The position numbers and the translations under genes are program-made. Shown here in pieces: positions 12,027 through 55,400 of a stretch of 64,000 nt of DNA. How positions within the stretch are numbered: position 1 is the first letter of the stretch; every line of letters begins with the position of its first letter. The stretch is from positions 1,240,001 through 1,304,000 of the forward strand of contig CP120453.1 of the NCBI GenBank assembly GCA_034226945.1, written 5' to 3'. The notes under the pieces were generated by a model. The model was not told where the DNA came from and did no database searches. It saw only the letters and a list, made by a program, of their open reading frames with translations. Source of the stretch: Picochlorum sp. SENEW3 (Eukaryota).

Positions 12027-15000
12027 ATGACGGGCGGAGAGTCCCAGCCTGCCAGCGAGGGCCCTGCTCAGGGTACTGCTGGACCAGTCAGGGATGTCCA
12101 CATGTCTGAGGAGAATTTATCTTCGAGCAGCGACGAATCCTCGGATCGCACAAGTAATACGATGGTGGATCGAAAAAGAAGAAGATACATTGATGTTTCA
12201 GGTGAGAGCGTTGATGCAATGCGCACGAGATGGGATAGTGGCATGGCAGCTGGGAGGGCGCCGAGGAGAAGGAGGCCATCGACGCAATGGGAGCAATTGA
12301 TTGGTCTGACGTGGCAGGAAAAGTATTCTCTTCACGAAAGAAAGATGCGAGAGGATGGTAGATGGGTCAGTTCGCGTCGGAAGGACTTGCCGCCTGATAT
12401 ATTTAGATCGAGCAAGTGGGAGCCCATTGAAATAGAACGGGCCATTGGAATTCGCCGAAAGGAACTGTTGCGACGGGATAAATTTGATGAGGATTGCGAA
12501 GAGTTTCATGTGTTTTATTCGCAGCCCGAGTTGGCGTATAATTTTAAAGGCGATTGGGAGAGAGCAGAGGGTCAGAGAGAGAAGGATAGGCTGTGGAATT
12601 TACCGTGGCCTTTAAAATATAGGGAGCACATGGAGAGGATGGAGAAACTCGGGAAATGGCCGTCAAAACGCGCTAATACGGATGGATCAAGACCGCCTAT
12701 ATTTTCCAGGGCTAGTAAGGATCCAATGGAGCAAATTATGTCAACACGGCTGTACAATTTGCTGCGGTCAGAAGTTTTTGATACATATTGCCAAGAGTTC
12801 CATGAGTTCTACATGAAGAATACAGGGTATGACTTTAAGAAAGAATGGGAAAGAGCTCATGAAAGCAAGTACTATAACAAACTTTCGTGGTCTGAGAAAT
12901 ATGGTGAGCATCTGAAGAATGTGGAAAAGGATGAACTGCGTTCCATGGACCAGGAGAGGTTGCGGGTGATATTATTTAATCCCAAAGGCCGTTCTCTAAT
13001 TCAGAGAATAGTATCTGAGCGGTTTCGTAAGTTATTGAGGTTCCGGGAAAAAGTTTCTAGTGCTGAAATAGAAGAGTTCCATCGGATTTATCTCGAGGAG
13101 ACTGGGTTTGATTTCAAAAAGTACTTGGAACAGTACAATCGTCGTGCTAGGGACTCAGATAGTGAAGCAGAGCACCCTCCTTTACTCATAGAGACTCCAG
13201 AGGCCTTTGAAATCCCAGCCATTCCATTGAAGGCGGAAAAGGACGAAGGAGAAGCCAATTACGAGTTTTATCTACTCAAGGGTTTGGATCTCTGGAAGAA
13301 GCAATGTTTTGATCTTCGTGAGCAGACAGGTAGAGGGATTCTTCCTCAGGATTGCATCGAAACCAGTACTGGTGAGACTAAAAGGATTGGATCCGATGTA
13401 CAAAAGTGGAGTAGAATAGCCCGAAATGAGTTACGACCCGAGTCTGCTAAAATGCAGTGCAGGCTTATAGAAATCCGACGCCGCCTGGTTACTCTGCTTG
13501 GCGTGGACCATAGTCTGCCAGATCCTCTTTGGAAATCATCGAAGAAAACTTCATCAGGCAAGGAAAAAAACGAGCATGGCTATACAATGGAGGAGATTTG
13601 CCAAGAGCATAAGGACGAAATTTTGCAGATGGATCCTATCAGATGGATTAATTCTAATACGCAAAATGGATCCTGTCCAAAGGTTTTTCAGAAAAACTTG
13701 GGCCCGTGTGAATCTCTAGCTGCAGTGACGCGGGAAAGGCTGTTGGCTTCACCCACCTTTGGTGAACAGTGCCAAAGATTCCATGACTTTTACTGGAAAG
13801 AGTTGGGTTACAACTTCAAGATTGAATGGGAGAATCATAGGATAGACGTGCTGCATAAAAGTAGCAATTGGGTTGACAAATTTGAGGCTCACAAGATGCA
13901 AGTGATAAAAGAGGACAGGGACAGACCTTCCCAACCGGCGCGATGGCAGTATAGTAAAGATGGGTCCCGTCCAAAAATTTTCAAAGTAACTGCGACTCAA
14001 TTGGAGCACGAAATATCCCGGAGGCGAGATAGACTGATGCAACGCATGCATATTGACCGCGATGTGCAAGAGTTTCACGATTTTTACCACGCAAACATTG
14101 GTTATGACTTCATAAAGGATTGGGAGTCAAACAAGAAGAAGAAAACCGTCCCCTGGATTGAAAGGTACAATGCTCACAAGAAAGTAATACAGTTAGAGGA
14201 CGCGAATAAGCCAGAGACATTGAAGCGATGGAAGCCAGTGGAGAAGGGTAAAACTCTCCCCCCAGTTTTCCGAAAAGATGCAAATACATGTGCTCAAGAG
14301 GAGTGTGCTGTCGGGAAGAGGAGGGATACATTGCTGCGCAAGCGCGATTTTGATGAAGCGTGTAGGGAATTCCATGAATTTTATAATAAAGAGCTGCAGT
14401 ATGATTTTGAACAGGACTGGCATTCTAAAAAGAACAAGGCTGATCCAAATGATGAGGAGTGTGCAGAAATCCTTTGTGATCTAAAAGGTGAGGAGCACCT
14501 CAATAGTTCTAAATTGCGTCGAAATCATCATCAACCAGTGAAAGATCCGAAAGTCATCGAAAAATTGAAAAAAGTTGGATTAACTGCGTTAGGTGAGAAG
14601 AAGATTTCAACAGGAGAAGTCCGCTGCAGGCCCAAATTAATGTACAAGAAAATGTTCCAGCCTCCCCTGTCAGAACGCTCTTTTCCAACTGTTGTACATG
14701 CGTGCATTATGGAGGACTGTCTTAAGATTATAGTGGAGATGTTGGGCCTCGTTCGAGGGCATGATCCAGTCAAAGAATTTTGCTTTGAGAGAAGTGGATA
14801 TGAGAGAAATGGTTCACTGATGGCTGCAATGATAAAAGTAGTAAATATCAGCAAGGCCCTGCACCACACAGAGGAACCACGACCAAGCACTAAGGACTTT
14901 TGGGAGTTTGTGAAATCTAGAATTTCAGACCATGTAGAAATTGACGACGTTCTGAAGAACACTGTGGCTTGCAAGTCACCCAGGGAGGATGCACTCATTA

Positions 15001-16205
15001 CCACACCAACGACACTAGACCGCGACACTGCTGTTGTGACTCTCCCGATAAAGGCAAAGGCTTTGGAGGATCGATCTAAAGGCGCAGTTATAAGCAAATT
15101 CAAAGTGAACTATGAGAAGCTTCAAGAATTCCTAAAGACCCATTCAACCCTGCCCAAACCTCGGGATGGAGATGCATCCCTTGCAAGCTGGCTGAGGCAC
15201 CAGCGAGTCCAATACCTGAATAATAATTTGAGAGACGAACCTGGGGTGATGGCTGGATTAACAGGTGAAGAGAAGCGGAAGATGTTGGACTCCCTTCCTG
15301 GGTGGAAGGAGTATGTGGCAGATGCAAAAGTCCCAAAGAGGGGAACGGTTCCCTTGGTCATGGAGTCAATTCCATCAAAGTATACAAAACTTCAGGAAAA
15401 TATCGAAAAACATCTGGAGATCCTAGAGAGATGGAAAATCGAGGAACAAGGCAAATCTGCCATTTCACGCAAACACATTCCTCCACAGCGCTGTGTATAC
15501 AATGACGCAAAGCACGGAGAAACTCGCCTTGGGTCTTGGATATATAGATTTAAGAAGAATGCCAAAAAAGGTGTGTCAGACGCTAAAAAAGTCCTTGGTA
15601 GAATCGGTGAGATCCTGGAGCTTGGAGAAAATTGGTGGCAGGAAAGTCCCAACACTGATGTACGTTGTGAAGCTCCTCCAAGTGATAAAATTTGCACCAC
15701 GGCGATTCAATCCTGTGAGTTGAAGTCAGAACATAGACCGAAAGCCTTTACTCAAAGTGCTCAAGCCTCTGGGGTGAAATATAATAGATTAGAACCTGCG
15801 AGAATATATGAGATTCTGGAGGAAGAAGGCCGCCAGGAGAAGTGCTTAAGCCATACTGCTGATTCCTCAGATATGCCCTTGATTAGTAATGTGAACAGCA
15901 CAGTCTCATCTGACCAAGAAAAAGGACCAGCGAGTATTCTGCGGGACTTATTCGTGAAAGACGTTGAGGCTGTATCCACAAATGACATCTTCCAAGTCAT
16001 TCGCAAGCTAGCAGATCAATACTGCCTTGATAATCCAGAGATGAAGAAACAAATCGATACTGCAGTTGAAAATGCAGGATTCAAGATTTTGGAAAAGTAC
16101 GATGATGGTAAACTACTGTATAGTCTCGCGAGATCGTGTGTTGAGTCACATAATATTGGCAAGTTTTTCCGCCACCTTGTCGCACAGCATGGCTCGAATC
16201 CCTGA
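12027..16205 (+). CDS. 1392-aa intronless repeat protein with helicase-associated (HA)-like domains
   Basis: Uninterrupted 4.2-kb ORF. Six repeats ending EFH.FY...GYDF...W. HA-like segment FKVNYEKLQEFLKTHSTLP...LASWLRHQR...EKRKMLDSLPGW. NLS-like RKRRR. Confidence 0.85.
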   Translation: MTGGESQPASEGPAQGTAGPVRDVHMSEENLSSSSDESSDRTSNTMVDRKRRRYIDVSGESVDAMRTRWDSGMAAGRAPRRRRPSTQWEQLIGLTWQEKYSLHERKMREDGRWVSSRRKDLPPDIFRSSKWEPIEIERAIGIRRKELLRRDKFDEDCEEFHVFYSQPELAYNFKGDWERAEGQREKDRLWNLPWPLKYREHMERMEKLGKWPSKRANTDGSRPPIFSRASKDPMEQIMSTRLYNLLRSEVFDTYCQEFHEFYMKNTGYDFKKEWERAHESKYYNKLSWSEKYGEHLKNVEKDELRSMDQERLRVILFNPKGRSLIQRIVSERFRKLLRFREKVSSAEIEEFHRIYLEETGFDFKKYLEQYNRRARDSDSEAEHPPLLIETPEAFEIPAIPLKAEKDEGEANYEFYLLKGLDLWKKQCFDLREQTGRGILPQDCIETSTGETKRIGSDVQKWSRIARNELRPESAKMQCRLIEIRRRLVTLLGVDHSLPDPLWKSSKKTSSGKEKNEHGYTMEEICQEHKDEILQMDPIRWINSNTQNGSCPKVFQKNLGPCESLAAVTRERLLASPTFGEQCQRFHDFYWKELGYNFKIEWENHRIDVLHKSSNWVDKFEAHKMQVIKEDRDRPSQPARWQYSKDGSRPKIFKVTATQLEHEISRRRDRLMQRMHIDRDVQEFHDFYHANIGYDFIKDWESNKKKKTVPWIERYNAHKKVIQLEDANKPETLKRWKPVEKGKTLPPVFRKDANTCAQEECAVGKRRDTLLRKRDFDEACREFHEFYNKELQYDFEQDWHSKKNKADPNDEECAEILCDLKGEEHLNSSKLRRNHHQPVKDPKVIEKLKKVGLTALGEKKISTGEVRCRPKLMYKKMFQPPLSERSFPTVVHACIMEDCLKIIVEMLGLVRGHDPVKEFCFERSGYERNGSLMAAMIKVVNISKALHHTEEPRPSTKDFWEFVKSRISDHVEIDDVLKNTVACKSPREDALITTPTTLDRDTAVVTLPIKAKALEDRSKGAVISKFKVNYEKLQEFLKTHSTLPKPRDGDASLASWLRHQRVQYLNNNLRDEPGVMAGLTGEEKRKMLDSLPGWKEYVADAKVPKRGTVPLVMESIPSKYTKLQENIEKHLEILERWKIEEQGKSAISRKHIPPQRCVYNDAKHGETRLGSWIYRFKKNAKKGVSDAKKVLGRIGEILELGENWWQESPNTDVRCEAPPSDKICTTAIQSCELKSEHRPKAFTQSAQASGVKYNRLEPARIYEILEEEGRQEKCLSHTADSSDMPLISNVNSTVSSDQEKGPASILRDLFVKDVEAVSTNDIFQVIRKLADQYCLDNPEMKKQIDTAVENAGFKILEKYDDGKLLYSLARSCVESHNIGKFFRHLVAQHGSNP

Positions 16206-16379: not shown

Positions 16380-17580
16380 TCAACGGAGCAATTGTTCCAG
16401 CTCCCATGGGTCAAACTCTTCCAAATCGTCATGCATAATACTCTCATAATCCATGTCGCCGCATTCCATGGTAGGAAAGAAAACGCGCCAGTCTTCAGAC
16501 TGACAGACCATGGGTTCATCAGCATCATTTAATGAAGACTCGAGATTTCTTTGGACTCCATCCATCCCCTCGAAAAAACCGTCTGTCATGCTCTCAGGGG
16601 AACCCAATAAATCCCATAACAGTTGATCTATATCCATGCCATATTCGTTGCTGCCCAACATGGTGGACATATCATGGACATCCAGCATGCCCACACCTTG
16701 CATTTCAGGCATCATTGGTGTCTCCGGAGGAGCCACGTCATCAAACAACGCAGCGCCATCGCTCACGTTTTCATCGAGTGCTTGTTCATAAATTTTCGCC
16801 AATATCCTGTCCACTCGCAAGGCCTCATCGACCTCTTTTCCGTACTTTGAACTCTTCTTGGCATGCAGCACATGCTCCACCACACAGTACACGCACACCA
16901 CCAGCAGCGTATCGTAATCTCCTTCCATGTTGCAGAAGGAAACGTTACCATCAGGGCTTTTAAATATCGAGTCCCTGCTGTGGCGCACTGTCACCGAATT
17001 GGTTTTGGCCCTGACGGGCATGTCCGTGGAAGAGGGCTGCTGGAGAGAGCCCTGCAGGATGCCACAAATGGCGTCCTCCACCTGCTTGCAGATGATTGCC
17101 ATGGTCGTCGTCTTATCATGAAACCTCAACAGACACGCCAGCAGCGTCTTTCCCATATTCCTCTGCTCGGCCCTGGCATTTTGTAGCCCCTCGAAATACT
17201 TGTTGGAGTCTTCTATTCTGAATATTTCGACCCTGGCGGGATCGCACAGAAGACTCTTCACGTCCTTCACCAGGTCGTGTTCCTCCGATAACAGCAGTAG
17301 TCCTGCAAGGCACCGTCGTTGTCAGGCACGACCCAAGGCGACTCACAACTATGCTCAGATCATTACAAATAAAACGATGAGACGATATCCATCAATTTCT
17401 GGCACCATCGAATAGTTCGCTCCAATTGGAGCGAACTTTGCACGGATTGGAAATTCTTGGCAACGCGAATCGCTCTCCCATGCACGTACCTTGCAGGTTT
17501 CCCAAAATATCGCGACTTTCATAATTATTGTTCATAATAAAGTCGAGAACATCACCTGGAGTGATAGATTTGCGGGACAT
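16380..17580 (-). CDS. Hypothetical protein with acidic/hydrophobic C-terminus
   Basis: Exon 17580-17490 (MSRKSITPGDVLDFIM...) spliced through intron 17489-17303 (GTACGT...TTGCAG) in frame with the 296-aa ORF. Confidence 0.7.
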
Positions 17581-18192: not shown

Positions 18193-19452
18193 TCATGTCT
18201 GTGCTGGACTCGGGGCCTCGTTCTTCTTGTTTATATACTGTATGACGACTTCAGCAACCTTGTCTGGTCTGACAGCGTCCAACAAGCTTTCACAGCTTGT
18301 AGGTGCCTTTGCCTTGTGTTTCTCATGCTGCTCCTTGGCATTCTTGATAATGGCAGCCTTGAGGCAATCCAGGGTTTCCTGAGACTCATATGCTCTATCC
18401 TCTCGAGGAGTTTCAAACGTTTTGAACGACAGATTGTTTTTGAACGATATTGGCCACGAGCTGGCCTGCCCCAGAATCGTATTCATTCGTTTCCTGACAC
18501 TTGATGATGCAAATCCCTGGATCTCGTTTGCTTGTGCCAAAACAATGCTGTCCTGTTCCTTATAATTTTGAAACCAGCTGTTCAACAATACGCAATACCC
18601 GTATTCCACTAGTTTCATGCATTCTTCTTCAGTGAGACCAGGGTATTGGAATTTGACCAACAAGAGGGAGTACATCTTCATATCGTTGAGGCTTTTAACT
18701 ACGCTGAGCTTGCACCTGTAGCCTTCTCCAGGGAGAAGACGCTCATCATACGTCCACAGGTCGATTCTTCTTTCAGTTTGTGTAGCCTGTGATACAAGTT
18801 GCACTACATCAACTGATTTCTCTGCCTCCTCTTGGATTATTATTGGTGAGCAAGAATGATGCATCGTTGCTGGGGATTCCTTGGCTTCAAATGAATTGCT
18901 TTGGACATACCAATGCTGCTGATTAATAAGATCCAAGTATTCAAAAGAACCTAATACATGGTCACGAAGTCCTTCACCAAAAACGCAGTCGATCACATTG
19001 ACTTTGTTCCTGGTAGAATTTGCATCCATCATCATCTGCTTTGATGATGTGTGATCCATGGTGTTTTCCTCCTCAAACTCTAGTTTTCTCGGTCTCAATG
19101 AGGTATAAGAGCGCGATTGTCCACCACTATAAAATATAGTAGTATCTGGAGATGGCCTGAGAGCTTTTTCTCCAGTCATTGGAGTCTCTAGAATCATTTT
19201 GTGAGTTTCTACACCCAAACACCCTGAATCACTCCCCTTTTCTTCACATACATACTGCTCATAATTGGCAGGACCGGTGTATATCAAAGGTGTATCAAAC
19301 GTATCTTCTTTGGGGGGCAGTACGGGGGTGCTTACGATTGGATGGCCACCACCACCATCTGGGGTGTCCTTGGTTGCCAAACCGAGGGCTAGTGGTGTAA
19401 ATTCCCTTCTCCTCTTGCGGTCACGCTGTCGTGCAGTGACACGTTGCAACAT
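18193..19452 (-). CDS. Hypothetical protein (~419 aa) with NLS-like N-terminus
   Basis: Long intronless ORF, RDRKRRR near the start, no recognised domain. Confidence 0.7.
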   Translation of the reverse strand: MLQRVTARQRDRKRRREFTPLALGLATKDTPDGGGGHPIVSTPVLPPKEDTFDTPLIYTGPANYEQYVCEEKGSDSGCLGVETHKMILETPMTGEKALRPSPDTTIFYSGGQSRSYTSLRPRKLEFEEENTMDHTSSKQMMMDANSTRNKVNVIDCVFGEGLRDHVLGSFEYLDLINQQHWYVQSNSFEAKESPATMHHSCSPIIIQEEAEKSVDVVQLVSQATQTERRIDLWTYDERLLPGEGYRCKLSVVKSLNDMKMYSLLLVKFQYPGLTEEECMKLVEYGYCVLLNSWFQNYKEQDSIVLAQANEIQGFASSSVRKRMNTILGQASSWPISFKNNLSFKTFETPREDRAYESQETLDCLKAAIIKNAKEQHEKHKAKAPTSCESLLDAVRPDKVAEVVIQYINKKNEAPSPAQT

Positions 19453-19753
19453 CCTTTTTCCCTGCACACACGCGATCAAATATAATTATTGGTACCAAAA
19501 AGAGTAATTCTGTCAAAGAAAAAACATTTTCTACGGTGGGGATGAAACACAACAGCAAGCGGCGACAGAACCCAGCTCGCAATTCTTTTCATGTCTACCC
19601 AAGTACGTACCATGAGATCGAGATTCGCTTCTTTTATCACTTATTTTAATATAGTAGAGTATATTTATCGATATTTGTAGATGAGCCCTGCAAGTTGCCC
19701 GACTTTTAGGGAACATGGACCACTGATTGCACTCAAAACGGCCATGCCATCAC

Positions 19754-19840: not shown

Positions 19841-20657
19841 ACTCAGCACCGTGTCTTGTCCAAGGACAAACATCAGCGTCTCGCTTCCAACCCTGCCATC
19901 ATTACCCATCGATCATTTGATTTGTATCCAAAATCACGTCTACCATACGTACAGAGAATTTTAAGGGCACCACAATGCGCTGTGGCTGCTTGCATCGCCC
20001 GAAGCCACCGTGGGATGGCGAGCTGGGATCACTTCCCGTACTTCCGTTTCCTCCCGGACTCGCCATATATACACCTATGGGCTCTCTTGATGACATATAT
20101 ATCATTAGTAAATATATTCATGTCATTTTTGAGGGCGCACATGCCCAATTTTGAGACCTTGCCGTGTGGACCAGCAGGAGGCCTCCACAAGGCCTGTTTT
20201 CAGGCTTTTCGGAAACGGCTGCAGCATGCTGGCAGTATCCCGGTATTCGCCTCGAGGCCCTCTTTTGGTTTTGACCACCCCGCCCCCTGAAGTGGCATTT
20301 TGACGCTCCTCGCCCGATTGCGCTGAGGATTTTTACAGTCTTTCTACATCCTAGTAGATCATGGTGATGTAAAAATGAAGAACGCGACGAATATAGCAGA
20401 CGCATGGTCTGCTGCTGCTCCAGCTGCTGCTGGGCCCTGTCGAATACTCGCTAGTATCGATCGATCGACTTTCAAGGTCGAGCCTTGGCGGTGACCGATG
20501 AACAACAACAATCGGGACGGACATTTCAAATTCAGTTTGAGTCGTGTATCGCCCCATCCGCACACGGATAGTATTGAATAAAATACGTTAATGATTGTAT
20601 TCGACCTTATGTGTTGATTCGATTTGTGTGGGAAAGACAGCCCGCTCATTGACGCGA

Positions 20658-23600
20658 ATGGTCGACCTCACCCGTGCTGGCGGTTCACACCGCGAGGAAA
20701 TTGCACAACACGGGGGAACAGGGCAGTTGGGGGCTGAAGGGAGGCATTTGGTGGTGCCAACAACTAGTCCAGGTGAAGTTGGCGAATCGTTAGCAACATG
20801 TGGACACTCGGGGGACGTGGCGACCCCTGGAGGCCTCTCGGGTTTACAGGATGATGAAGAGAGGGAATTAATATTTCTAATCGTGCACGCGCTGCAGAAT
20901 ACAGAGTTGAAGGATGTCGCGGAGCTCTTGTCACAGAGAGCGCTCGAGCGGGGGTTGTTGCCCTGTAGAACCGACTACACTGGGCATCAGCGGCAGGCCC
21001 GTAGTTATGGCGATGTAGTTGAAAGATTTAATCACGTACCTCAAACGTATGTGTTGGACGCTCTGAGGTCCCTTCGGCGGGAGAGGGCGTTGTTGGAAAA
21101 CCAAAGTGTCCAGGAAGAGGGGCCTGGTGTGGTTGATGTGGTTCGTGTAGAGGCGGAGAAGAATGATGTAAGGAATGTGTCCTCGGCTCATTTAAGTATC
21201 CCATCGAGCCTTTTGGATCGGATGGTGTTGGGAAAGGATAATGTATTGTATACAAGAGAGTTGGACAGAAAACCTGGTGCCTGGCTACATGCGATGCCAA
21301 GTATGCATCACGGCTTGAAAGGAGAAAATATTCTAATGTACGACGAGCTCCGCCGGTGTGGTTTGATGAGAGAGATGCGTGATGGAACAGGGGTTGGATT
21401 AGAAAAGCGGCAGATGTGGAATCATCAGTTTACAGTTCGTGGCCATTCCATGGCTGCATACTGTGTTATTTATGATAGAACAGGGGACTTGATCATAACT
21501 GGATCTGATGATCGCTTAGTGAAGATTTGGTCGGCGAGGACGGGCTTGCTGCTTCGATGTTGTCGAGGACATTTGCATGAAGTGAGTGATTTGGCTGTGA
21601 GCCATGATAATAAAGTGCTTGCTAGTGCCTCTGTGGATGGTTCCATCCGTCTCTGGAATATAGATCGCAATGAAAACTTTAGTGAAGATTTTGGAAGGCT
21701 TGTTGGAGTTTTGGAAGGCCACACATCATTGGTCTCTTCCCTGAACTTTTCTCCAGTGAGGGATTTTGAGTTGCTATCTTCAAGTTTTGATGGAACTTGT
21801 CGCATTTGGGATATTCGGGACGGTTCGTTTGTGAGTATGGAATGGAATTGGAGAAGAAAAGGTACAAATTTACCTGTAAGTATGAATTTGAGACAGCGAG
21901 AAAATCCGGTTGAAAGGGGACTCAGACCACGGGCACGCAATCATGCACAAGAGGAAGAGGAGGAAGCAGAGGCATCCGAGATCCAGGAAGAAGGAGAAGA
22001 GGATGATACGAAAGTCAGTATAGCCATGTTTTCTGGTGATGGAAATCATATTATTGCTGGAGTGGCAAATTGCAATATGTGCCTGTGGGAATGGCATCCT
22101 GATGGGCAGGATGGAGACGGTACTCCAGTGGCAACCAGAGTTGAGTTGCTGCGTGGGTATCACAATTCAGATGTGTACCTCGTGCAACGGAGTTATGGCG
22201 GCGACTGGATTGCTAGTGCGTCTCGGGATGGTATTGTTTGTGTCTGGAAACCAGGAAAAGGGGGGCACCATAGACGCTTGGTCCCAATTGATACATGGAA
22301 GTGTGTAGGGACATTTTCGGCACCCGAGCAGGATGACGATGCACGTGCAAGGAGACGCAGGGCTGAGCCTCCTCGTGTGGATCAAATTGCTTGGAATTCG
22401 GATGATACTCTCATTCTGGCAAGCGTGCAGAATTATAAAGTACTAGTGTATTCCTTGCCAAAAGGTCAGGTTGTCACAGAGCTCTCTGGTGTTCACAAAG
22501 AACCAGTTCATGTGGTGTTGGCACATCCATTTGAACCAGATATTGCAATCACAGCGAGTTACTCTGGAGAAATTGTCCTGTGGAATATTTCTCGAGGTGT
22601 TCCAATAAAGATTTTCCATAGTGTCGACTCGAGGCCCGATGGAAGGAAATGGCCTGACCCAATTGCATATGTGGACGGCTATATCAGCCCAGATGGCCAG
22701 TATGCTGCTCTGACGGATGCTGCAGGACAGCTTCACGTGATTGGATTGGGCAGTCCCGATCCTTGGATATCCAGGGCGCCATATGATCAGTTTTTGTCAA
22801 CTGATTATGAGGAATTGCTCACAGATGATCAGGGTATTGTCCGAAGCCTTGTGACCAATGAGCCAGCTGATGCAAGAACTGGGACAGAGTTGGTCTGTGA
22901 TGCCACCGCCACCCCGTATCCTCATGGATATCAGCTTGCATATCGCAATGGGACCTTGTTATCGTCTGATGGGAGAGATGTCGCCTGGATTCAACCAGGT
23001 CAGCAGCCAGGATATGTAATGGCTGCTCCCACTCTGGCAGCTGCTCAGTGGAGAGTGTACGCTGCTGGCGGAACAGATAATGCTGCAGAGCAAGCCCTCC
23101 ATAGAGCCCAGCTGCGGCTGCAAGATCACGAAAGGCAAATAGATATGTCTGAAGGAGGGCGGCCTCCACTTGCCCGAGAGAACGTCTTGGTGAACGAGCC
23201 GCGCCCTGATCGCCTCTGGGAAACAATATCTGCCTCTGATACATCAGATGATGAAAACACAGAAACCCGTAGGAATGGTGCTCGACGACCTGTTCGACAG
23301 AGTCGTCGTATTTCTGCTCGAAATTCAGATCACGAAGATGATGATATAATCGATATTACAGAATTGACAGAAGAACAACTTAGAGAACGGCAGCAACAGG
23401 AAAGAGAGCGGCGTTTACAACGGAGAGAAGCAGCTCGCAACAGGAGGAGACAGGGGACTCGAGTTTCCACAAGAACATCGCGGCGAAATACAACAATACC
23501 GGAAGGAGAGTTCGATAGCGAACCTGAGTCATCTGACGTATCATCTTTGGTGCCAGAGGAGGAGGACGTCCCGGGTCCATCACGGCCACAGGGCAGACGC

Positions 23601-24941
23601 CGGGGAAGGAAACGAGAAAGAGACTCTGATGAAGGCCCCCCTGCTCCTGAGCCAAGGAATATGAGCCACTATCAGTGGCTTATATCTGATAAGCGGTTCT
23701 CTGCCATATATGCTCCTCAGAATGGCGACGAGGTCATTTATTTGAGGCAAGGCCACGAATCCATGTTGCAAGAGGTTGCAACAGAGATTGCCCCTCCTTG
23801 GGAATCATTTAGAAACGGAGACAGGATCCGCCCTGCTGAGCCATGTGTTGTGAAAAGCATTCGATATTTCATTGCCAGCGATGGTACCCAAGGAACTGCA
23901 GTGACGCTAACCCTCGAATTTTCTGATCAAACCTCACCCTTGTTTGGCCAGGCATTTGATATCAACCTGTACTCGCCATTATCAGGTCTCGCCGATTGTG
24001 TTGTTCTGCGGACTGTATTTGACGCAACTGTCTCACGTCAATGGAATGCAAATGAAGAATGCAAAACTGTATTTTGGGCAGATGATTCCGAAGAGTGGTG
24101 GAATGGCACCGTGTTGGAGGACAAGTTGGAGGACTTCCACACACCACAGGACCCCTATGCAGAGGCTAATGAGCTATGGGAGCGTTTCGGGGTCCAATGG
24201 ATTCCAAATCAGAGTGGTGATCAAGCAGAATTCTCTTTCCATTCTCCATGGGAGCTGCGATCTGAGGAGAACATGTCCAGTGGTGTGCTGGATCCCCACA
24301 CGATCGACCCAGCAGTGCTGTCAAAAATGAGGGAGGCTGTTACAGCAGCATCGTCCCAGCCTGAGTGGGAGATCTTTCAAATAGCTCCTCTCGTGGATGA
24401 AGCATACATGTCCAGGAGAGGGCACTGTGAATATTACAACACATTGATACCGTTGCCCATTGGATTAGCTGACATTGCTTCCCGACTGGAGAATAGGTAC
24501 TATCGACAACCATCTGCCATTGAGCATGACATTCGTCTCCTTGCCAGAAATGCAGGGGAATTCAATGGAGACGAAAATGACATATATCGAGAAGCCAAAA
24601 AACTAGAGGCATTCCTTCTTGATGTCCTCGATGGCACAGCCGATGTGGGAGATGCCGAGGTCTATACTGGTGATGACCATCAGACACCTCCAGCCAGAGC
24701 AACACGACGCACATCCCAGCGCTCTCGATCCCAAGTTCGAATTCCACCACAGCGACGCAGAAGAACGAGACAAACCACTGTCGAACTCTCTGAATCATCA
24801 TCTGAAGAAGAAGACGAAGACATGAGTTTCATGTCAGAGGAAGAACCTGATGAGTCTTCATCAGACGAAGCAGAGAGCAGTGCCTCTGAAGACTCCATGC
24901 CTAGACGTACAAGAGGAACTCAAATTCGACTACGCCGATGA
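20658..24941 (+). CDS. WD40- and bromodomain-containing protein (BRWD/PHIP family)
   Basis: RGHSMAAYCVIYDRTGDLIITGSDDRLVKIWS and further WD repeats, APYDQF, YAPQNGDEVIYLRQGH, SPWEL, bromodomain-like RLENRYYR...NAGEFN. Confidence 0.92.
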   Translation: MVDLTRAGGSHREEIAQHGGTGQLGAEGRHLVVPTTSPGEVGESLATCGHSGDVATPGGLSGLQDDEERELIFLIVHALQNTELKDVAELLSQRALERGLLPCRTDYTGHQRQARSYGDVVERFNHVPQTYVLDALRSLRRERALLENQSVQEEGPGVVDVVRVEAEKNDVRNVSSAHLSIPSSLLDRMVLGKDNVLYTRELDRKPGAWLHAMPSMHHGLKGENILMYDELRRCGLMREMRDGTGVGLEKRQMWNHQFTVRGHSMAAYCVIYDRTGDLIITGSDDRLVKIWSARTGLLLRCCRGHLHEVSDLAVSHDNKVLASASVDGSIRLWNIDRNENFSEDFGRLVGVLEGHTSLVSSLNFSPVRDFELLSSSFDGTCRIWDIRDGSFVSMEWNWRRKGTNLPVSMNLRQRENPVERGLRPRARNHAQEEEEEAEASEIQEEGEEDDTKVSIAMFSGDGNHIIAGVANCNMCLWEWHPDGQDGDGTPVATRVELLRGYHNSDVYLVQRSYGGDWIASASRDGIVCVWKPGKGGHHRRLVPIDTWKCVGTFSAPEQDDDARARRRRAEPPRVDQIAWNSDDTLILASVQNYKVLVYSLPKGQVVTELSGVHKEPVHVVLAHPFEPDIAITASYSGEIVLWNISRGVPIKIFHSVDSRPDGRKWPDPIAYVDGYISPDGQYAALTDAAGQLHVIGLGSPDPWISRAPYDQFLSTDYEELLTDDQGIVRSLVTNEPADARTGTELVCDATATPYPHGYQLAYRNGTLLSSDGRDVAWIQPGQQPGYVMAAPTLAAAQWRVYAAGGTDNAAEQALHRAQLRLQDHERQIDMSEGGRPPLARENVLVNEPRPDRLWETISASDTSDDENTETRRNGARRPVRQSRRISARNSDHEDDDIIDITELTEEQLRERQQQERERRLQRREAARNRRRQGTRVSTRTSRRNTTIPEGEFDSEPESSDVSSLVPEEEDVPGPSRPQGRRRGRKRERDSDEGPPAPEPRNMSHYQWLISDKRFSAIYAPQNGDEVIYLRQGHESMLQEVATEIAPPWESFRNGDRIRPAEPCVVKSIRYFIASDGTQGTAVTLTLEFSDQTSPLFGQAFDINLYSPLSGLADCVVLRTVFDATVSRQWNANEECKTVFWADDSEEWWNGTVLEDKLEDFHTPQDPYAEANELWERFGVQWIPNQSGDQAEFSFHSPWELRSEENMSSGVLDPHTIDPAVLSKMREAVTAASSQPEWEIFQIAPLVDEAYMSRRGHCEYYNTLIPLPIGLADIASRLENRYYRQPSAIEHDIRLLARNAGEFNGDENDIYREAKKLEAFLLDVLDGTADVGDAEVYTGDDHQTPPARATRRTSQRSRSQVRIPPQRRRRTRQTTVELSESSSEEEDEDMSFMSEEEPDESSSDEAESSASEDSMPRRTRGTQIRLRR

Positions 24942-25219: not shown

Positions 25220-27651
25220 ATGTCAGGATTTGGTTTTGGTGGTTTTGACATTTCTAACATTACCAATGTCAGCAATATTGGAGAAACGTTACAAAAAATC
25301 AGAGAGGATGTCGAAAATACGATTGATGCGTCATTTCAAGACGATGTTGAGGAGGGACATGACCAGGGCAATGACGACGCAGAAGGTAGTTGTTCTGCTT
25401 TGACGATGCCATTTTCTTATATGAAAATGATTTTAAAACCATATGTTGCAGGGTGGTTTGGCGGTTTTGATGGTATTGTGAAATCATTCGTTGGGGACGA
25501 GGAGGAGGAAGAACAGACTGCTACAGAGTTACCTCGGGAAGAGACGCAACAGCAGGTGGCACTGTCGCAAGCTGAAAAGCTCGATGAAACTCAACCAGTA
25601 CACAATACGCCAGATGAGCAGAAGGTTGTATTTCCAAGAGATGACGATAGAGCAGAGCCCCAGGCAGTGGCAGAACCTGTGGGTGCAGTGGAGGACCAGG
25701 CTCTTTCAGTGGCCAGGCGTGAAGTGGCGGATGGCGTTGCTGAGAAGGTGCCACAGGATCCATCTACTACTGTAACACATTCCTCAAAGAGTTCGAAGAA
25801 GAAGAAGAAAAAGAAGAATAAAGGGCAGGCAAAGGCAGTGGATACATTGCCTCCTGAGCAGCAGGCAGCATTGGCACAGACTGATGCTGACAGTGACATG
25901 GCGAAGCGAGTGGCCGAGCTGGAGCGTACACTGAAGGTACGGGAAGAGCAGTTGGGACGACAGGCAGAGGAGATTGCGGAAGCGAAACGAATCTCAGATC
26001 AGTTGATGAAGAAGAATGAAGAATTGGCCATGGCCAAGGCATCTGTTTCAGAAAAGGATGTGGCGGATGTAGAAACGTGCGTGTCGAATATTGTTTCATA
26101 CTGGTTCTGTTTTTGGTTATAATATATTTGGCACTGGAATGCAGGAAGTATGAGTCACAGCTAGATGACGCCAAAAAGAAGATGAAGCAATTAGGAGACC
26201 AGAAGGCAGCGTTGGAATCAAAGCTTCAGAAAGTGGTGGAATTGGAACAGAAACTTGAGGTGAAAGACACCGAGATCCGTGAAATATTGGAGGAAGGAGA
26301 GAAGTTGAGCAAGAAGCAGTTGCATATGGAGACGACAATCAAACAGTTGAGACAGAGCCTGACGTCTGCGAAATCAGAGAGCGAGGAACAGGCAGCTCTG
26401 TTGGAATCTGAGCGTTCTCAGGCTGCTGTCCTTCGGCAAGAGATGGAATCTCTACAATCTCAGTTGAATGTGTCGAAGGAAGATCATGACACGTTCCTGG
26501 CCAATCTGAAGACGGAGCATGAGAAGACTGTGAGGGAGCTGAGAACAGAACTGATTGCTGCTGAGAGAAAGATGGAGAACATGGAAAAGGCGGGTGCTTC
26601 GAGAAAATTACGTGATGCAGAAAGCAAGTGTGAGGCACTTCAAGAAAGTATTGAGAGTTTGCGTGAAGAAATGAGGAGACAGCGTGAAAATGCGGATGAA
26701 CGGGAGGATATGCTGTCTGCTGAAATTTCACTTCTGCAGCAGCGGTGTGCTGAAGCAGAAGCTCGTCAGCAAGACTCGCAAGATAAACTGCCGCAAGCAA
26801 CAGCTCCCCTTTATGATGAAATAGAAGCACTGCGAGGGAAGCTAGAGGAACAAGAGCAAGAATCTATTGCGGTGCAGAAGAAACTCATGTCACAGGTGGA
26901 CCAGCTGGAAAAGGAGAATGAGTCGCTGAAAACAAGACTGGAGAGTGTCACCGAGAATGAGCAAGAAATTCAATCCCGTTATGATACAATACATAGCCAA
27001 CTCATGAGTGCACAGCAAGCGTCTGTCGAATCGGAACGAATCGCATCTGTAGAGAGGGCAGCCCGGGATGAGGCTGAGCTTGCTCTCCGTGAAGCAAAAT
27101 CTGAACTGTCTGCGATGGAAAACAGCGTCTCTTCCATGGAGAAGGTATACAATAAGCAGATTGAAAACATGGCTAAGAAAGAGTCATCATTGAATGAGAA
27201 GATTCGACAACTGGAGGACCAGGTCGAAACGCTCAAGGGACAAGCAGCAACCCAGGCACCCATCTCTCCACCCAAGACGATTCCTGAGGCACTCGGCAAA
27301 GAAGAGGAGACAAGCCTCACGTTGGATCTTTCTGAGCATAGTTTGCAGAAGAAAATTAAAGATTTGGAATCAACGAGGGACAGGTTATCCAACGAACTCG
27401 TTCAAGCAGAACAACGTGTTGCTGAAGGCATTGCAGCCAAAACCAAACTGGATGGAGTCTCAGCAGAAGTCTCAACTCTCCGTAAAAAATTAGCCGCAGC
27501 AACAGAACTCCTTGGAGAACGCGAGGAACGAATAGAAGAATTGCGAGCAGACCTCCAGGATATCAAAGAGGGATACAAACAGCAATTGGTCATCATGGCG
27601 GATGAGTGCACACGGCTGAACAAAAAGGTCGCAGCCATGACGTCAATGTAA
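25220..27651 (+). CDS. Golgin of the TMF1/GC5 family
   Basis: Coiled coil with EGEKLSKKQLHMETTIKQLR and C-terminal ELLGEREERIEELRADLQDIKEGYKQQL; introns 25386-25451 and 26077-26144. Confidence 0.85.
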
Positions 27652-27659
27652 CACTATGA

Positions 27660-28607
27660 TTATAACGATGCCATTTCTTCCCGACACTTTTCGCATTCAC
27701 ATCGAAATCCATAGGAAAACTCTAGCATCTGCTGCCTCTCAGCAACAGGAGCATCAGCGTCTATATACGAGACACAGAGCTGCTCATGCTGAGAGATATC
27801 CCGCTCTGCAGTCAAGCGGATCTCGTGCGTATTCCTAGGAAACCCGACCCCAACATTTGGAATGCAGGAATGATTCAACATTGATGCCAGTACATACACA
27901 GCAGACCCACTCTCTCGTGCTGCAGTTACATGCTCCTTCAAGAGCGCAGAATATCCACCCTTGTCGCCAATTAACAATGAACCAACGTCAACAATATCTA
28001 CTCGAAAGGCATTCACATGTATTCTGCTCATCATATCTACATACCAAGACAAATTCAGACAGTCTCGCGCTCCAGAGATTGAGTCAAACGATGCCATGAG
28101 AGCCTCAAACGAATCCCTCCACTCCTGAGGAATTAAGTCACGTTGCACATTCACATGACACAAACTCGACATATCACTACTTCGAAAATCACCTCCATCT
28201 ATATCTTCTCTGACCTTCATACACGCCAGTTCCGACACAAGCAACGGAAACTTTTGATTCCCATGCTCAACACAGAAAGAATGCAATGGCCCCCACTCTA
28301 TACCTGCATACATTGCTCTAATAGATTCTCCATTTCCAGCACATGATGGACAATAGATAGCACCATGATGACTCTTCTCATCAGCAATGAATTCAGGTCT
28401 GAGACACCCAGCACACCATGACTGCTTCTTTGAGACTGGTGCCGTACTCACCAAAGGCACCTCCTCAAGGATCACCGTCCCCTGCGGAATATCAGTCGCA
28501 GCGAATAACCCTCGACCCAAACCAGGTATATTCTGAAACAATGTAACGAATCGACTGTTTTCCGCCAGCAAACGAGACAATCGAGGCACATATGAAGCAC
28601 TCCCCAT
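27660..28607 (-). CDS. SET-domain methyltransferase (ATXR4/SMYD-like)
   Basis: GRGLFAATDI, CAGC, LNHSCIPN, VSYID, YGFRCECEKC post-SET motif. Confidence 0.85.
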   Translation of the reverse strand: MGSASYVPRLSRLLAENSRFVTLFQNIPGLGRGLFAATDIPQGTVILEEVPLVSTAPVSKKQSWCAGCLRPEFIADEKSHHGAIYCPSCAGNGESIRAMYAGIEWGPLHSFCVEHGNQKFPLLVSELACMKVREDIDGGDFRSSDMSSLCHVNVQRDLIPQEWRDSFEALMASFDSISGARDCLNLSWYVDMMSRIHVNAFRVDIVDVGSLLIGDKGGYSALLKEHVTAARESGSAVYVLASMLNHSCIPNVGVGFPRNTHEIRLTAERDISQHEQLCVSYIDADAPVAERQQMLEFSYGFRCECEKCREEMASL

Positions 28608-30529: not shown

Positions 30530-33324
30530 ATGTGGAGACTTGCGTTGTTAGTCGTACTTGCCCTGAGTGTCAGGGCACAGGATGGTGCGTGTTTTACACC
30601 AGTATGCACTGCTATATAATATTGGAATTTTATACAACGTCTAGTGAGGCATTTGGATGATACGAGGCACTCGTTTGGACGGTCGACTGATTCCCGCGTT
30701 ACAATGTGACGGTCACGTGGACGGGTGATAGAGACCTCCAACCTATGTGGCGGCCTCGTGTCCAGGCGCATGGGGACAGCGACTATCTATTTGATGTATA
30801 CTAACGGTGTTTGTTGAATATTAGTCATTAATCTAAGGTCGATGCCGCTCGCAGAGGATTCCGATCGGCTGTTGACCTCGGTCAGGCAGCCTGTTATTGT
30901 GGAGGCCAACGTGCCAAATATCACTGTCGGTTTCAAGACTGGTCCAAACATTCCTGGAACTCAGTTCACGATCAAGTGCGTTCTTGAGGGCGAAGCATGC
31001 GATGCTCCTCCTCAAGGGCAGCCTGTGAGTGGGTCTTTGCCTGTCAAACCAGCTGCTGTGGAGGGCACAGTCCAAGGTCTGGATGTGGATCAGACATACA
31101 GTTGCTTTGTGGAAACAACTCTCTCTGAAAATGGAAAAGTCTCGTTTTGCCAGGAGGCCACACCGAGTCCAGGTATTGTGAGATTCGAGTTGAAATTCCC
31201 AGGGTACCGCGACGCAGCTGCATTTGGTCAGCAAGACAGAGAACAAGTCTGTGCTAATGTCTTATCTCTGCAGCCGGGAGGAACATGCACTGTGTTGCGC
31301 GTGGTGAACGGTAGTGCCATTGTTTTTATTCAGGTTGAAGACGACGACTACAGGAATACATGGTCTCTCACAGAGACGCTGGCACAGAATGAAACTGAAG
31401 TGACTGCTGCGCTCACAAGTGGCCTTGAGGGTTCTGTTGAGATTGCTGATATCCAGACGGAACCTCCACTTCCAAGTCCACTCCCTCCCACAGGCGTCAC
31501 TGCCAATCCATCCAGTGATTGCATGCCATCTGTTGTTGTGACATGGACAGCCCCACAGAGAAGCTCCACCATTACTGGGTATTTTGTTTCCTGCAAATCC
31601 ATGACTGCACCGACAGCAAACAGCACTGTTGCAGCAACGCAGCGCAATGTCAGCTTATCAATTCAAGCTGGAGAAGAATACATGTGCTCTGTGGTGTCTC
31701 AGGGACCGTCAGGGACCTCTGTGCCAGCAGATGCATCATCACTGGTGATGTACAGGTGTGTTTTTGAGTCTTGCCTGCAGTTCTTATATGCATGAGTGGC
31801 TGAAAATTTCTTCAACGTGATATGCTAATTTTTATCGGTCTCACAAGTGCACTTAATTTGGTGGATTCATGTAGGTATCCTGTTGCATGCAAACCTGGAG
31901 AAGTATCAAATGTGGCTACAGGGCCTGTGACAGGCGAATTGCTTCAAAGTCAAGTCACGTGGGAGCCCGCTGAGGAAACCATACCCCCCATTCTGGGATA
32001 CAAGATCGTGTGCAATAGCACTGATGGGTTGGAGGCAGACGTGCGCACAGTGGAGGTGCCTGAAAGTCCTGCTATTGTGGGTGATGGGGAAGAAGAAAAT
32101 GGACCACTGCCGCAAGGAGCCGACTATACTTGCAGTGTTGCTGCTTATAATGCTGCAGGAGATGGTCAACCAGTGGATTCTTCATCCTTCATGGTACCTG
32201 CCGTAATCAACAAAGATTTAAATAAAGCATATGAGACTATTCAAGCTGCGATTGATGATCCCAATGCAGAGACTACAACAATTTCTGTTGGGCGGGGAAC
32301 TTTCAAAGAATACATCTCTATCGAGAAGTCAATAACCTTATTGGGGCCAAATGCTGGTGTATTGCCATATAATGATGCAAAGGATGGCATCAACCCCTCT
32401 CGGAACTTGGAAGCAAAGATTGAGCCTCCAAATGATTCAAGAGAAAGTCTGATTCGCATCCGTGCAACAGAAGTCACGATGAAAGGTTTCACCATTACAT
32501 TGCCCTTAGAGGGGGAGCCATCATGGGGCATCCATGGTGCAGATGACATATCTGAGGGTGGGCCAGCCTATAATGTGAGCGGATTGACTGTCGAGGACAT
32601 GATACTAGAAGGAGGCTTGTCAGTTGGCATGATTGTTCGCAGGACCTCTGAGAATTGCAGTCCAGAAGCAACCGTAAACCAGGTTACTTTTAAGCGGAAC
32701 TTTATGAAAAATACGTTTGCACAGCCATTTTACATGCAGTGTGCATCCGGAAATGTTGAAGACAATGTCGTTCTAAATGGATATTCTGGAGTTCAAATCC
32801 AACCATATACGGGTGCAACATTTGGTACGGTCCAAAACAACGTGTTCAAAATCTATAGTAGAGGTATCTACTTGAACTTTATCCGGACAAACCCAGTTGA
32901 TTGGACTGTGACAGGGAATGCAATCACATTGGTACCTGAATTTCAGCCAGACCCATTTGGCTTTGATCAGTGGACTGGCATTTATTTCCGCACAACAGGT
33001 CCTTTTGCAAGCGAATCTCCTTTCTTGACAGTTACTGGCAATACCATCAACATGGGTACTGTTGGTGGCGACTATCCATATTCAGTGTATGGCATCTACT
33101 TCAGAAATTACCAATTGATGATTGAGGACAGTGCAACCATATCTGGCAATAATTTGACTGGCTCTGGGGAAATAACTGCGTATATCTCTGCGCTGAACAA
33201 CCAAAACGAAAATGGAGATATCATTGATCTGGAAATTGCCGAGAAGCTGGAAAATGAGAATCAGTTCAGTGAGGACACTGCTGTCTCAGATGATCCTTGC
33301 TGTGAGATTGTTCAAATAGTCTGA
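30530..33324 (+). CDS. Secreted protein with FN3-like domains and a C-terminal right-handed beta-helix (pectin lyase-like) domain
   Basis: Signal peptide MWRLALLVVLALSVRA; introns 30585-30644, 30706-30837, 31756-31874. FN3-like VTW...ITGY...Y.CSV repeats. TIQAAID...GTFKEYISIEKSITLLG followed by Asn-ladder repeats. Confidence 0.75.
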
Positions 33325-54338: not shown

Positions 54339-55400
54339 ATGAAATTCCTGGTACGACGAACTGATACGTTCCCTTGCTGCATTTCATCACCAATGCCGTT
54401 TTATTAACACCTGATATATTATCTATACGTATAGGATACAAAATGTGCATTTTCCATGCCCCTATTCCACCAACCAAGGGACAGAATGAGTGGTCGAGTT
54501 CAAGCCTCGACAACCCAGCTACCAGAGCGTTTGGATACCATTGTGGCATCTTTCAAGGCAGTGCCTGACCCAATGCAGCGATACAAGCAATTACTATTCT
54601 ATGCTTCAAAGATTGAGCCATTGGAAGGAGCATATAAAGTGGAGGAGAACAAGGTGAAGGGCTGTGTGTCACAGGTGTGGGTGGTGCCACAGGTCCAAGA
54701 GGATGGCACTGTCCAATGGATGGCTGATTCCGACTCTCAACTGACCAAGGTATGAATTCAGATTATGATAATGTGTACACACGTTTGGTATAATCAAACC
54801 ATGATCTATTCCTCCTGTGTGTAGGGATTGGCTGCTCTTTTGGTGCAAGGTTTGAGCGGCATTACGCCCAAAGAAATCATCACGATCCAGCCAGAGTTTA
54901 TCACTGAGCTTGGACTGCAACAGAGTCTGACTCCATCACGAAATAATGGGTTTTTGAACATGTTCAAATTGATGCAGAGCAAGGCATTGGAGCTTGCCAT
55001 GGAGAGTGTCAATGCAGCATCAAGTGGTGCTGCTACCGCTGGTGCCCGCGATGCCACGGTGAATGACACACCTGTAGAATCAGACCAAGAATATCATAAT
55101 GAAGAACAAGAGACATCATCGACCCCTGTCGGCGACAGCATTCGCCGAAAACTGGAACAAGAACTTGAGCCAACGAAACTCGTCATTCTTGATGAATCCT
55201 CCAGGCATGCCAACCATGCCGAAAGAATGGGCGCTGCCTCTCAGGGAGAGACACACTTCACCATTGAGATTGTGTCAGACAAGTTTCAAGGACTGACGTC
55301 GATCAAAAGACACAGACTGGTCTATGGAATTTTAGAAGAAGAATTGGAGGGATCAGTCCATGCACTGTCATTGGTTACCAAAACCCCCGAGGAAGCATAA
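54339..55400 (+). CDS. SUFE1: SufE-BolA fusion (SUFE1 type)
   Basis: NKVKGCVSQVW, ADSDSQLTKG, LTPSRNNG, then BolA DESSRHA...ETHF...KRHRLVY...HAL; introns 54351-54434 and 54750-54824. Confidence 0.92.

Follow-up and report, generated by a model that had tools for sequence, protein, structure and literature searches.

The window analyzed here, a 64,000-nucleotide stretch of contig CP120453.1 of Picochlorum sp. SENEW3, contains at 12027..16205 of the forward strand a gene for a large protein assembled from six copies of a repeat of about 95 residues and three units that resemble the helicase-associated (HA) domain. The gene is a single unbroken open reading frame (ORF), stop codon included, encoding 1392 amino acids (aa). 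A public predicted protein of equal length, P0001, is 100% identical across 100% of the window protein. This fits a single-exon gene model and bears out the giant intronless ORF that a preliminary description of the window had reported. Two full-length orthologues share 85% and 73% identity with the window protein. Comparison of these sequences indicates a real gene that is kept by purifying selection.

The protein begins with three repeat units, followed by an HA-like unit with the motif LDLWK, three further repeat units, a conserved middle region, a canonical HA domain, and a sub-threshold HA-type unit with the motif LERWK (Table 1). The basic cluster RKRRR and the motifs LDLWK (residue 420), GETKRIGS (449), YEKLQEF (1029), SLPGW (1089), LERWK (1133), and GETRLGSW (1164) were all found at the places where the preliminary description had put them. 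HA (PF03457) is the only Pfam family above threshold in the window protein, and the NCBIfam scan returned 0 families. Pfam and NCBIfam detected neither a helicase core nor any other catalytic domain, in agreement with the earlier view of a protein without a helicase. The Pfam scans listed matches to E≤10, but HMMER filters drop most of those above about E 0.1. A match of residues 475–545 to Exo_endo_phos_2 (E 0.0068, 16.7 bits vs a cut-off of 27.4) was treated as noise.

Table 1 Features of the gene at 12027..16205 and of the protein it encodes. LOO, leave-one-out score of the unit against a model of the other five, with the best shuffled score after "vs".
Feature	Position	Strand	Residues	Remarks
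N-terminal Ser/acid-rich region	12027..12302	+	1-92	Low conservation; no signal-like hydrophobic stretch
Basic cluster RKRRR	12171-12185	+	49-53	RKRR core kept in 3/3 orthologues
Basic cluster PRRRRP	12261-12278	+	79-84	Kept in 2/3 orthologues
Repeat unit 1	12303..12590	+	93-188	hmmsearch 118.6 bits; LOO 73.5 vs 9.1
Repeat unit 2	12597..12881	+	191-285	hmmsearch 116.4 bits; LOO 82.8 vs 11.7
Repeat unit 3	12879..13160	+	285-378	hmmsearch 90.9 bits; LOO 33.8 vs 7.0
LDLWK...GETKRIGS unit	13257..13526	+	411-500	HA-like by eye only
Repeat unit 4	13578..13865	+	518-613	hmmsearch 113.5 bits; LOO 52.6 vs 10.6
Repeat unit 5	13860..14153	+	612-709	hmmsearch 113.2 bits; LOO 73.4 vs 9.7
Repeat unit 6	14145..14453	+	707-809	hmmsearch 123.6 bits; unit folded with AlphaFold2
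Middle region	14463..15095	+	813-1023	Conserved; fold unassigned by Pfam/ESM Atlas
Canonical HA domain (PF03457)	15096..15296	+	1024-1090	E 2.3e-07; 31.4 bits vs cut-off 28.4
LERWK...GETRLGSW unit	15378..15641	+	1118-1205	Best Pfam match PF03457, E 0.0071; 17.1 bits vs cut-off 28.4
C-terminal region	15927..16202	+	1301-1392	No Pfam family below E 0.09

The repeat units are anchored by the motif [ERQ]FH, which a regular-expression scan located at residues 159, 257, 350, 584, 682, and 781 (nucleotides 12501, 12795, 13074, 13776, 14070, and 14367). The spacings of 98, 93, 234, 98, and 99 residues arrange the units in two blocks of three. The number of anchors, their coordinates, their spacings, and the division into blocks all agree exactly with the preliminary description. 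The units span 93–103 aa, with isoelectric points of 5.8–9.6. In their alignment of ~96 residues, positions H11, F34, L55, F68, H69, Y72, and F81 are invariant, and the mean column identity is 45%. Pairwise identity between units is 17–36%, and unit 3 is the most divergent, with 17–31% identity to the remaining units. Hidden Markov models (HMMs) built from five units recognized the sixth with 33.8–82.8 bits, compared with 6.3–11.7 bits for the best of 500 shuffles per unit. When the entire window was translated in six frames, no seventh unit appeared, and the next best ORF had E 1.2.

At the nucleotide level, repetition is limited to a 19-nt stretch encoding the EFH anchor, of which there are 4 copies at 79–100% identity; the duplications are therefore old. 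An origin of units 4–6 as a block copy of units 1–3 was considered and rejected, since the corresponding pairs (units 1 and 4, 31%; units 2 and 5, 36%; units 3 and 6, 24%) are no more similar than other pairs (17–36%).

The structure of unit 6 (residues 707–812) was predicted using AlphaFold2 (AF2) with a 21-row family alignment as input. The model has a mean predicted local distance difference test score (pLDDT) of 91.1 and a predicted template-modeling score (pTM) of 0.80, and the five models range in pLDDT from 87.3 to 91.1. The predicted unit is formed by four helices, at model residues 4–21, 51–64, 71–84, and 88–98. A non-helical segment of 29 residues separates helices 1 and 2, yet it is predicted with confidence (block means 88–92). 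In the model, the long first helix and the ordered ~29-residue loop, which carries W29 and the motif G-x-R-P-x-[IVF]F, would pack onto a three-helix core composed of the segments E..V..RR..LL, FD..C.EFH.FY, and L.YDF...W.

The best-kept positions of the family are aromatic or structural. Among 23 non-orthologous units, F76 is conserved in 23/23, P39 in 22/23, F88 in 22/23, W29 in 21/22, W92 in 20/23, and F79 in 19/23, and L63 and L64 are conserved in 18/23 each. This pattern marks out a hydrophobic core. Basic residues recur at three positions: R59 (R or K in 18/23), K66 (K or R in 16/23), and R38 (R in 12/20). The AF2 model describes an autonomous four-helix domain that would be held together by its conserved aromatic residues, not by metal.

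Metal binding had been put forward in the preliminary description, which pointed to two invariant histidines and a frequent CxxxH motif; the unit could then be a new zinc-binding module. H11 and H69 are indeed invariant in the six units of the window protein, and a cysteine precedes the second histidine by four residues in four of them. However, units 3 and 5 lack the cysteine, and across the 23 non-orthologous units the position of the first histidine is occupied by H (14 units), W (7), or C (2) and that of the second, in the FH pair, by H (17), A (4), or E (2), while the cysteine column stays below a 50% majority. AF2 also folds the unit confidently without a ligand. Because the histidines and the cysteine are not kept across the family, a metal site was rejected as a family property, and we regard a zinc-binding module as hardly credible.

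Relatives of the unit were searched for with a profile of the six units in HMMER among 1,835,955,588 protein cluster representatives. The search returned 21 proteins at E≤0.001, of which 10 also pass E≤1e-10 and 2 pass E≤1e-30. In 10 of the 21, the profile matches at least two stretches. One of the 21 represents the orthologue group of the window protein. The remaining 20 are 41–834 aa long, many of them evidently fragments. Two short proteins, P0012 (118 aa) and P0007 (197 aa), contain one complete unit apiece, whereas tandem arrays across the family contain 2–6 copies, among them six in the window protein and four to five in other proteins. Among longer proteins, the family-profile search returned only P0001–P0003 and P0010.

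No described family was matched by the unit. Pfam gave a meaningful match for 0/6 units and 0/21 family members, and the family profile found nothing better than E 0.48 among PDB sequences. Foldseek comparison of the unit 6 model with the PDB gave no match at E≤0.001 and 6 matches at E≤10, the best with a TM-score of 0.28; against the BFVD viral library there was again none at E≤0.001, with 16 at E≤10. The ESM Atlas contained no usable match to unit 6. Phage records searched by tblastn gave no match, and 80 pattern matches in 185,579 prokaryotic species genomes included 0 confirmed relatives, which is weak evidence of absence given that the patterns were strict. In the literature, nothing was found on such a repeat or on HA domains in diatoms. 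The unfamiliarity of the repeat, noted previously from the sequence, thus holds in Pfam, in the PDB by both sequence and fold, in BFVD, and in the ESM Atlas, and the HMM search and the AF2 and Foldseek analysis of one unit that had been proposed for it led to no described family. We conclude with high confidence that the repeat unit represents a real, undescribed, and autonomous domain family.

Two family proteins, P0008 and P0016, carry a sub-type of the unit with DYD.AF or EFE.AF in place of EFH.FY, in which the profile matches only positions 40–77. P0008 is Ala-rich and contains five units of this sub-type. Since only positions 40–77 are matched in the sub-type, the family may have started from the C-terminal half of the unit, with its three helices, as an ancestral core.

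Of the known systems, the HA domain comes closest to the unit. HA domains consist of three helices and are located C-terminal to the helicase core in bacterial helicases. The canonical HA domain of the window protein covers profile positions 4–62 of 64 and scores 31.3 bits when scanned alone. It matches PDB entry 2kta_A, 'Putative helicase', weakly (E 0.69), and is 92–97% conserved in the orthologues. The canonical-looking HA unit of the preliminary description is thereby confirmed as PF03457, above the gathering score. The two further units that had been called HA-like fared differently. The LERWK unit is plausible, as HA is its best match, although below threshold; the LDLWK unit matched 0 Pfam families at E≤10. 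Comparison of the LDLWK unit using hhalign gave P 0.013 over 77 columns to the LERWK unit and P 0.15 to the canonical HA domain, so the three HA-type units of the protein barely recognize one another (P 0.013–0.15). The LDLWK unit is 81–87% conserved among the orthologues.

The unit and the HA domain (PF03457; structure 2KTA, Bacteroides vulgatus BVU_0683 627-691) are both small, all-helical, tandem modules that start with an aromatic-x3-aromatic helix, and the canonical HA domain shares a polypeptide with the units. The two differ in that the unit has ~95 residues, four helices, and an ordered loop of 29 residues, compared with the 64 positions of the HA model, and in that the HA units of the window protein show nothing corresponding to the unit motifs P-x-[IV]F, RR..LL, C.EFH.FY, and L.YDF...W. 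The unit shares the niche and the company of HA, and stands apart from it in sequence, size, and topology.

It was suggested in the preliminary description that the unit is a divergent fold derived from HA. In that case, it would be a true, very distant HA homologue that has gained an insertion or an additional helix, and the window protein would be a nine-module HA protein. The presence of the unit alongside a canonical HA domain and the sub-threshold LERWK unit, its position behind a helicase core in the family protein P0010, and the W/aromatic-x3-Y/F opening of both all-helical domains speak for such a descent. Positions 5–32 of the unit HMM also align to the start of the LERWK unit, at a non-significant level (independent E-value 0.87 in P0003 and 86 in the window protein). 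Against it, the HA model matched 0/6 units and 0/21 family members at E≤10, hhalign gave P 0.27–0.52 and a probability of 1.4% between the unit and the HA-like units, whose profiles contain 3–9 near-identical rows, and the lengths and helix numbers disagree. Furthermore, 2kta was absent both from the 6 Foldseek matches of the unit model in the PDB and from the PDB sequence matches of the family profile, both listed to E≤10. The suggestion was not borne out by these tests, which are weak. A 72-aa HA query, used to look for short HA proteins that could deepen the HA profiles, returned no candidates, and with profiles this shallow the hhalign values are uninformative and do not count as a negative result. 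The model of the canonical HA region, intended as positive control for the fold comparison, was of low confidence (pLDDT 37.4). We consider remote homology unlikely.

The link between the unit and helicases comes from P0010, a protein of 834 aa encoded on a 3,136-nt contig. It contains a superfamily 2 (SF2) helicase C-terminal domain at about residues 153–273, followed by four units at residues 397–810, so that the units are located C-terminal to an SF2 helicase core as HA domains are in bacterial helicases. The helicase part matches DDX21 (6l5m, E 7.3e-04); at E≤1 it also matches another 12 chains, most of them helicases. Its match to Pfam Helicase_C (E 0.0012, 19.5 bits) is below the cut-off of 23.5 bits. 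P0010 is the only one of the 21 family proteins with tandem units behind an SF2 helicase core. In another member, P0005, a weak HA match at residues 314–372 (E 0.35) comes after two units. Across the family, units stand alone, form tandem arrays, or, once, follow an SF2 helicase core, and in this last position they take the place that HA has in bacterial helicases.

Basic clusters were seen by eye at the ends of P0008, P0010, and P0019, and the N-terminus of the window protein is hydrophilic. Together with the RKRR cluster, these features suggest that the protein is probably nuclear. In P0013, P0019, and P0010, one or a few units are followed by long acidic tails or short basic clusters, for example a C-terminus of the PKKRK type, as judged by eye; these ends are reminiscent of nuclear or nucleolar proteins.

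Because of the helicase core in P0010, the co-occurrence with HA, and the basic clusters, we read the unit as a candidate binding module of helicase-associated type. The HA domain reportedly binds DNA, going by the title of Mills et al. 2013, which is cited in PMC12191111. That the unit also binds nucleic acid is what we infer, tentatively and with some doubt, from its co-occurrence with HA and from one helicase-bearing relative. We hypothesize that the window protein is a non-catalytic, probably nuclear, multivalent scaffold, which would use the six units and the HA domains to bind nucleic acid or chromatin, or would recruit a helicase. To this reading as a whole, an undescribed helical module of helicase-associated type in such a scaffold, we assign a probability of roughly 0.4.

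Several observations weigh against the scaffold hypothesis. The helicase fusion occurs in 1/21 family proteins only, on a contig of 3,136 nt, with a weak match below the Pfam cut-off. Searches of the PDB, Pfam, and BFVD, including Foldseek comparison with the PDB, connected the unit with no known nucleic-acid-binding domain, either by sequence or by fold. The motifs resembling nuclear localization signals are short basic clusters picked out by eye. The units themselves are not markedly basic: K+R vs D+E are 22/22, 18/14, 21/19, 11/14, 21/16, and 22/22 in units 1–6. The near-neutral charge and the lack of a known binding fold make a role in protein interaction almost as likely.

In such a role, the units would be protein–protein interaction modules, and the protein an adaptor that assembles, for example, helicases or chromatin factors without touching nucleic acid itself. 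The near-neutral net charge of each unit is in keeping with this, as are the conserved positions, which are mostly buried aromatics plus acidic and basic residues, and the missing match to a nucleic-acid-binding fold. The co-occurrence of the unit with HA, for which DNA binding is reported in a title, and with a helicase core points the other way, as do the conserved basic positions R59, K66, and R38; neither is decisive. We regard the adaptor role as possible, if somewhat unlikely taken by itself.

Conservation among the three orthologues also bears on the adaptor role. Identity is 65–94% in the units, 81–97% in the HA-type units, and 74–84% in the middle region, compared with 40–76% in the linkers and 26–63% in the disordered C-terminal part. 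Within the units, 17 of 182 cells differ among orthologues in family-conserved columns (9.3%), and 116 of 399 differ in unit-specific columns (29.1%), whereas 50–60% of columns vary in the linkers. Since the unit-specific columns are constrained, every unit keeps a private constrained surface. Such surfaces fit distinct binding partners, as far as sequence comparison can tell, and a partner of its own for each unit is what interaction modules would be expected to have.

Private surfaces could alternatively serve in reading nucleic acid. The unit might be a new class of nucleic-acid-reading module that originated in photosynthetic protists without descent from HA. Its arrays, including the tail on at least one SF2 helicase, would recognize specific DNA or RNA targets unit by unit, with the private surfaces setting the specificity; we hold this to be improbable. 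If true, it would provide a programmable-looking binder scaffold and a handle on algal gene regulation. Another alternative is that the protein reads sequence module by module in the manner of TALE, PPR, or PUF proteins, with one base or a short word per unit and with the specificity set by the unit-specific residues. Those families are helical repeat arrays that read nucleic acid by module, and the tandem arrays of 2–6 units, the two blocks of three, and the identity that each unit keeps across orthologues are what such a reader might show. Classical code-bearing repeats are highly similar save for a few hypervariable positions. In contrast, the units of the window protein are only 17–36% identical, occur also in single-unit proteins, and are predicted by AF2 to be closed, self-contained domains joined by short variable linkers instead of turns of a solenoid; neither a solenoid nor code positions are evident. 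A code of this type is very improbable.

Myb/SANT repeats, which serve as a lead only, are likewise tandem small helical domains with a core of spaced Trp and Phe residues (W4, W29, F/W69, F76, F88, and W92 in the unit), and both kinds of repeat would be found in nuclear proteins if the window protein is nuclear, as its basic clusters suggest. A Myb repeat is about half the length of the 95-residue unit. The unit differs from Myb/SANT in having no match to these families in Pfam and no Foldseek match in the PDB at E≤0.001.

If the scaffold hypothesis is true, the unit would be a second, structurally distinct, helicase-associated helical module, confined to 21 of 1.84 billion cluster representatives. 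It would raise the question of which nuclear role a protein built of nine modules (six units and three HA-type units), with no catalytic domain, plays in an ecologically important group of algae. The definition of the family would permit the annotation of proteins that are currently blank, and would make available a small domain of ~95 aa, folded with confidence, for work on its structure and binding. Domains of unknown function that are restricted to one lineage are frequent. Should the unit be merely a lineage-specific interaction domain, it would be one more of these and of modest interest.

In the N-terminal region of the protein, 54% of columns vary across the three orthologues. The middle region is more constrained, with 31% of columns varying compared with 50–60% in linkers. 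It has no Pfam family below E 0.14 and no usable ESM Atlas match. An AF2 prediction of residues 813–1210, made from an alignment of only 3 rows, reached a pLDDT of 37.4 and a pTM of 0.22, and the middle region was mostly below 45. Over its last 92 residues, the window protein shares 91% identity with P0002 but only 14% with P0003, though P0003 is 73% identical overall. A frameshift or a differing gene model is the likely cause of the divergence of the P0003 C-terminus.

Purines are in excess on the coding strand between 12001 and 16000 of the window (GC skew 0.21 and 0.12, AT skew 0.13 and 0.19) because the encoded protein is rich in K, E, and R. Two antisense ORFs lie within the gene, at 14531-15103 (190 aa) and 13749-14090 (113 aa), and are probably by-products of the purine-rich composition.

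The gene belongs to the nuclear genome of a photosynthetic protist, in which genes are dense and introns few. The neighboring ORFs encode RAP, mTERF, DGAT, PP2C, WD40-bromodomain, TMF, SET, and NifU proteins, and more distant ones include a chlorophyll-binding protein, a plastid-type acyl-ACP desaturase, LytB, a bifunctional DHFR-TS, and OTCase. The chlorophyll-binding ORF matched no PDB chain at E≤1e-05. The neighbors are uninformative about the function of the gene. Downstream of it, two ORFs on the reverse strand, 16380-17270 (296 aa, very acidic) and 18193-19479 (428 aa), have no Pfam family at E≤0.001. The ORF at 20595-24941 (+) encodes a protein of 1448 aa in which a BRWD1-like domain at the N-terminus is combined with WD40 propellers and, at the C-terminus, a bromodomain, and its product is, by its domain content, a chromatin reader. 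A TMF-like ORF (26077-27651) and a SET-domain ORF (27660-28607) are located near it. In the ORF at 54825-55397 (+), the final part of a SufE domain is linked to an entire BolA domain. This resembles a SufE-BolA fusion, the 5' part of which is probably in another exon or frame. Two adjacent ORFs at 30842-31795 and 31822-33324 (+) encode one fibronectin type III domain each and may be one intron-split gene or a tandem pair.

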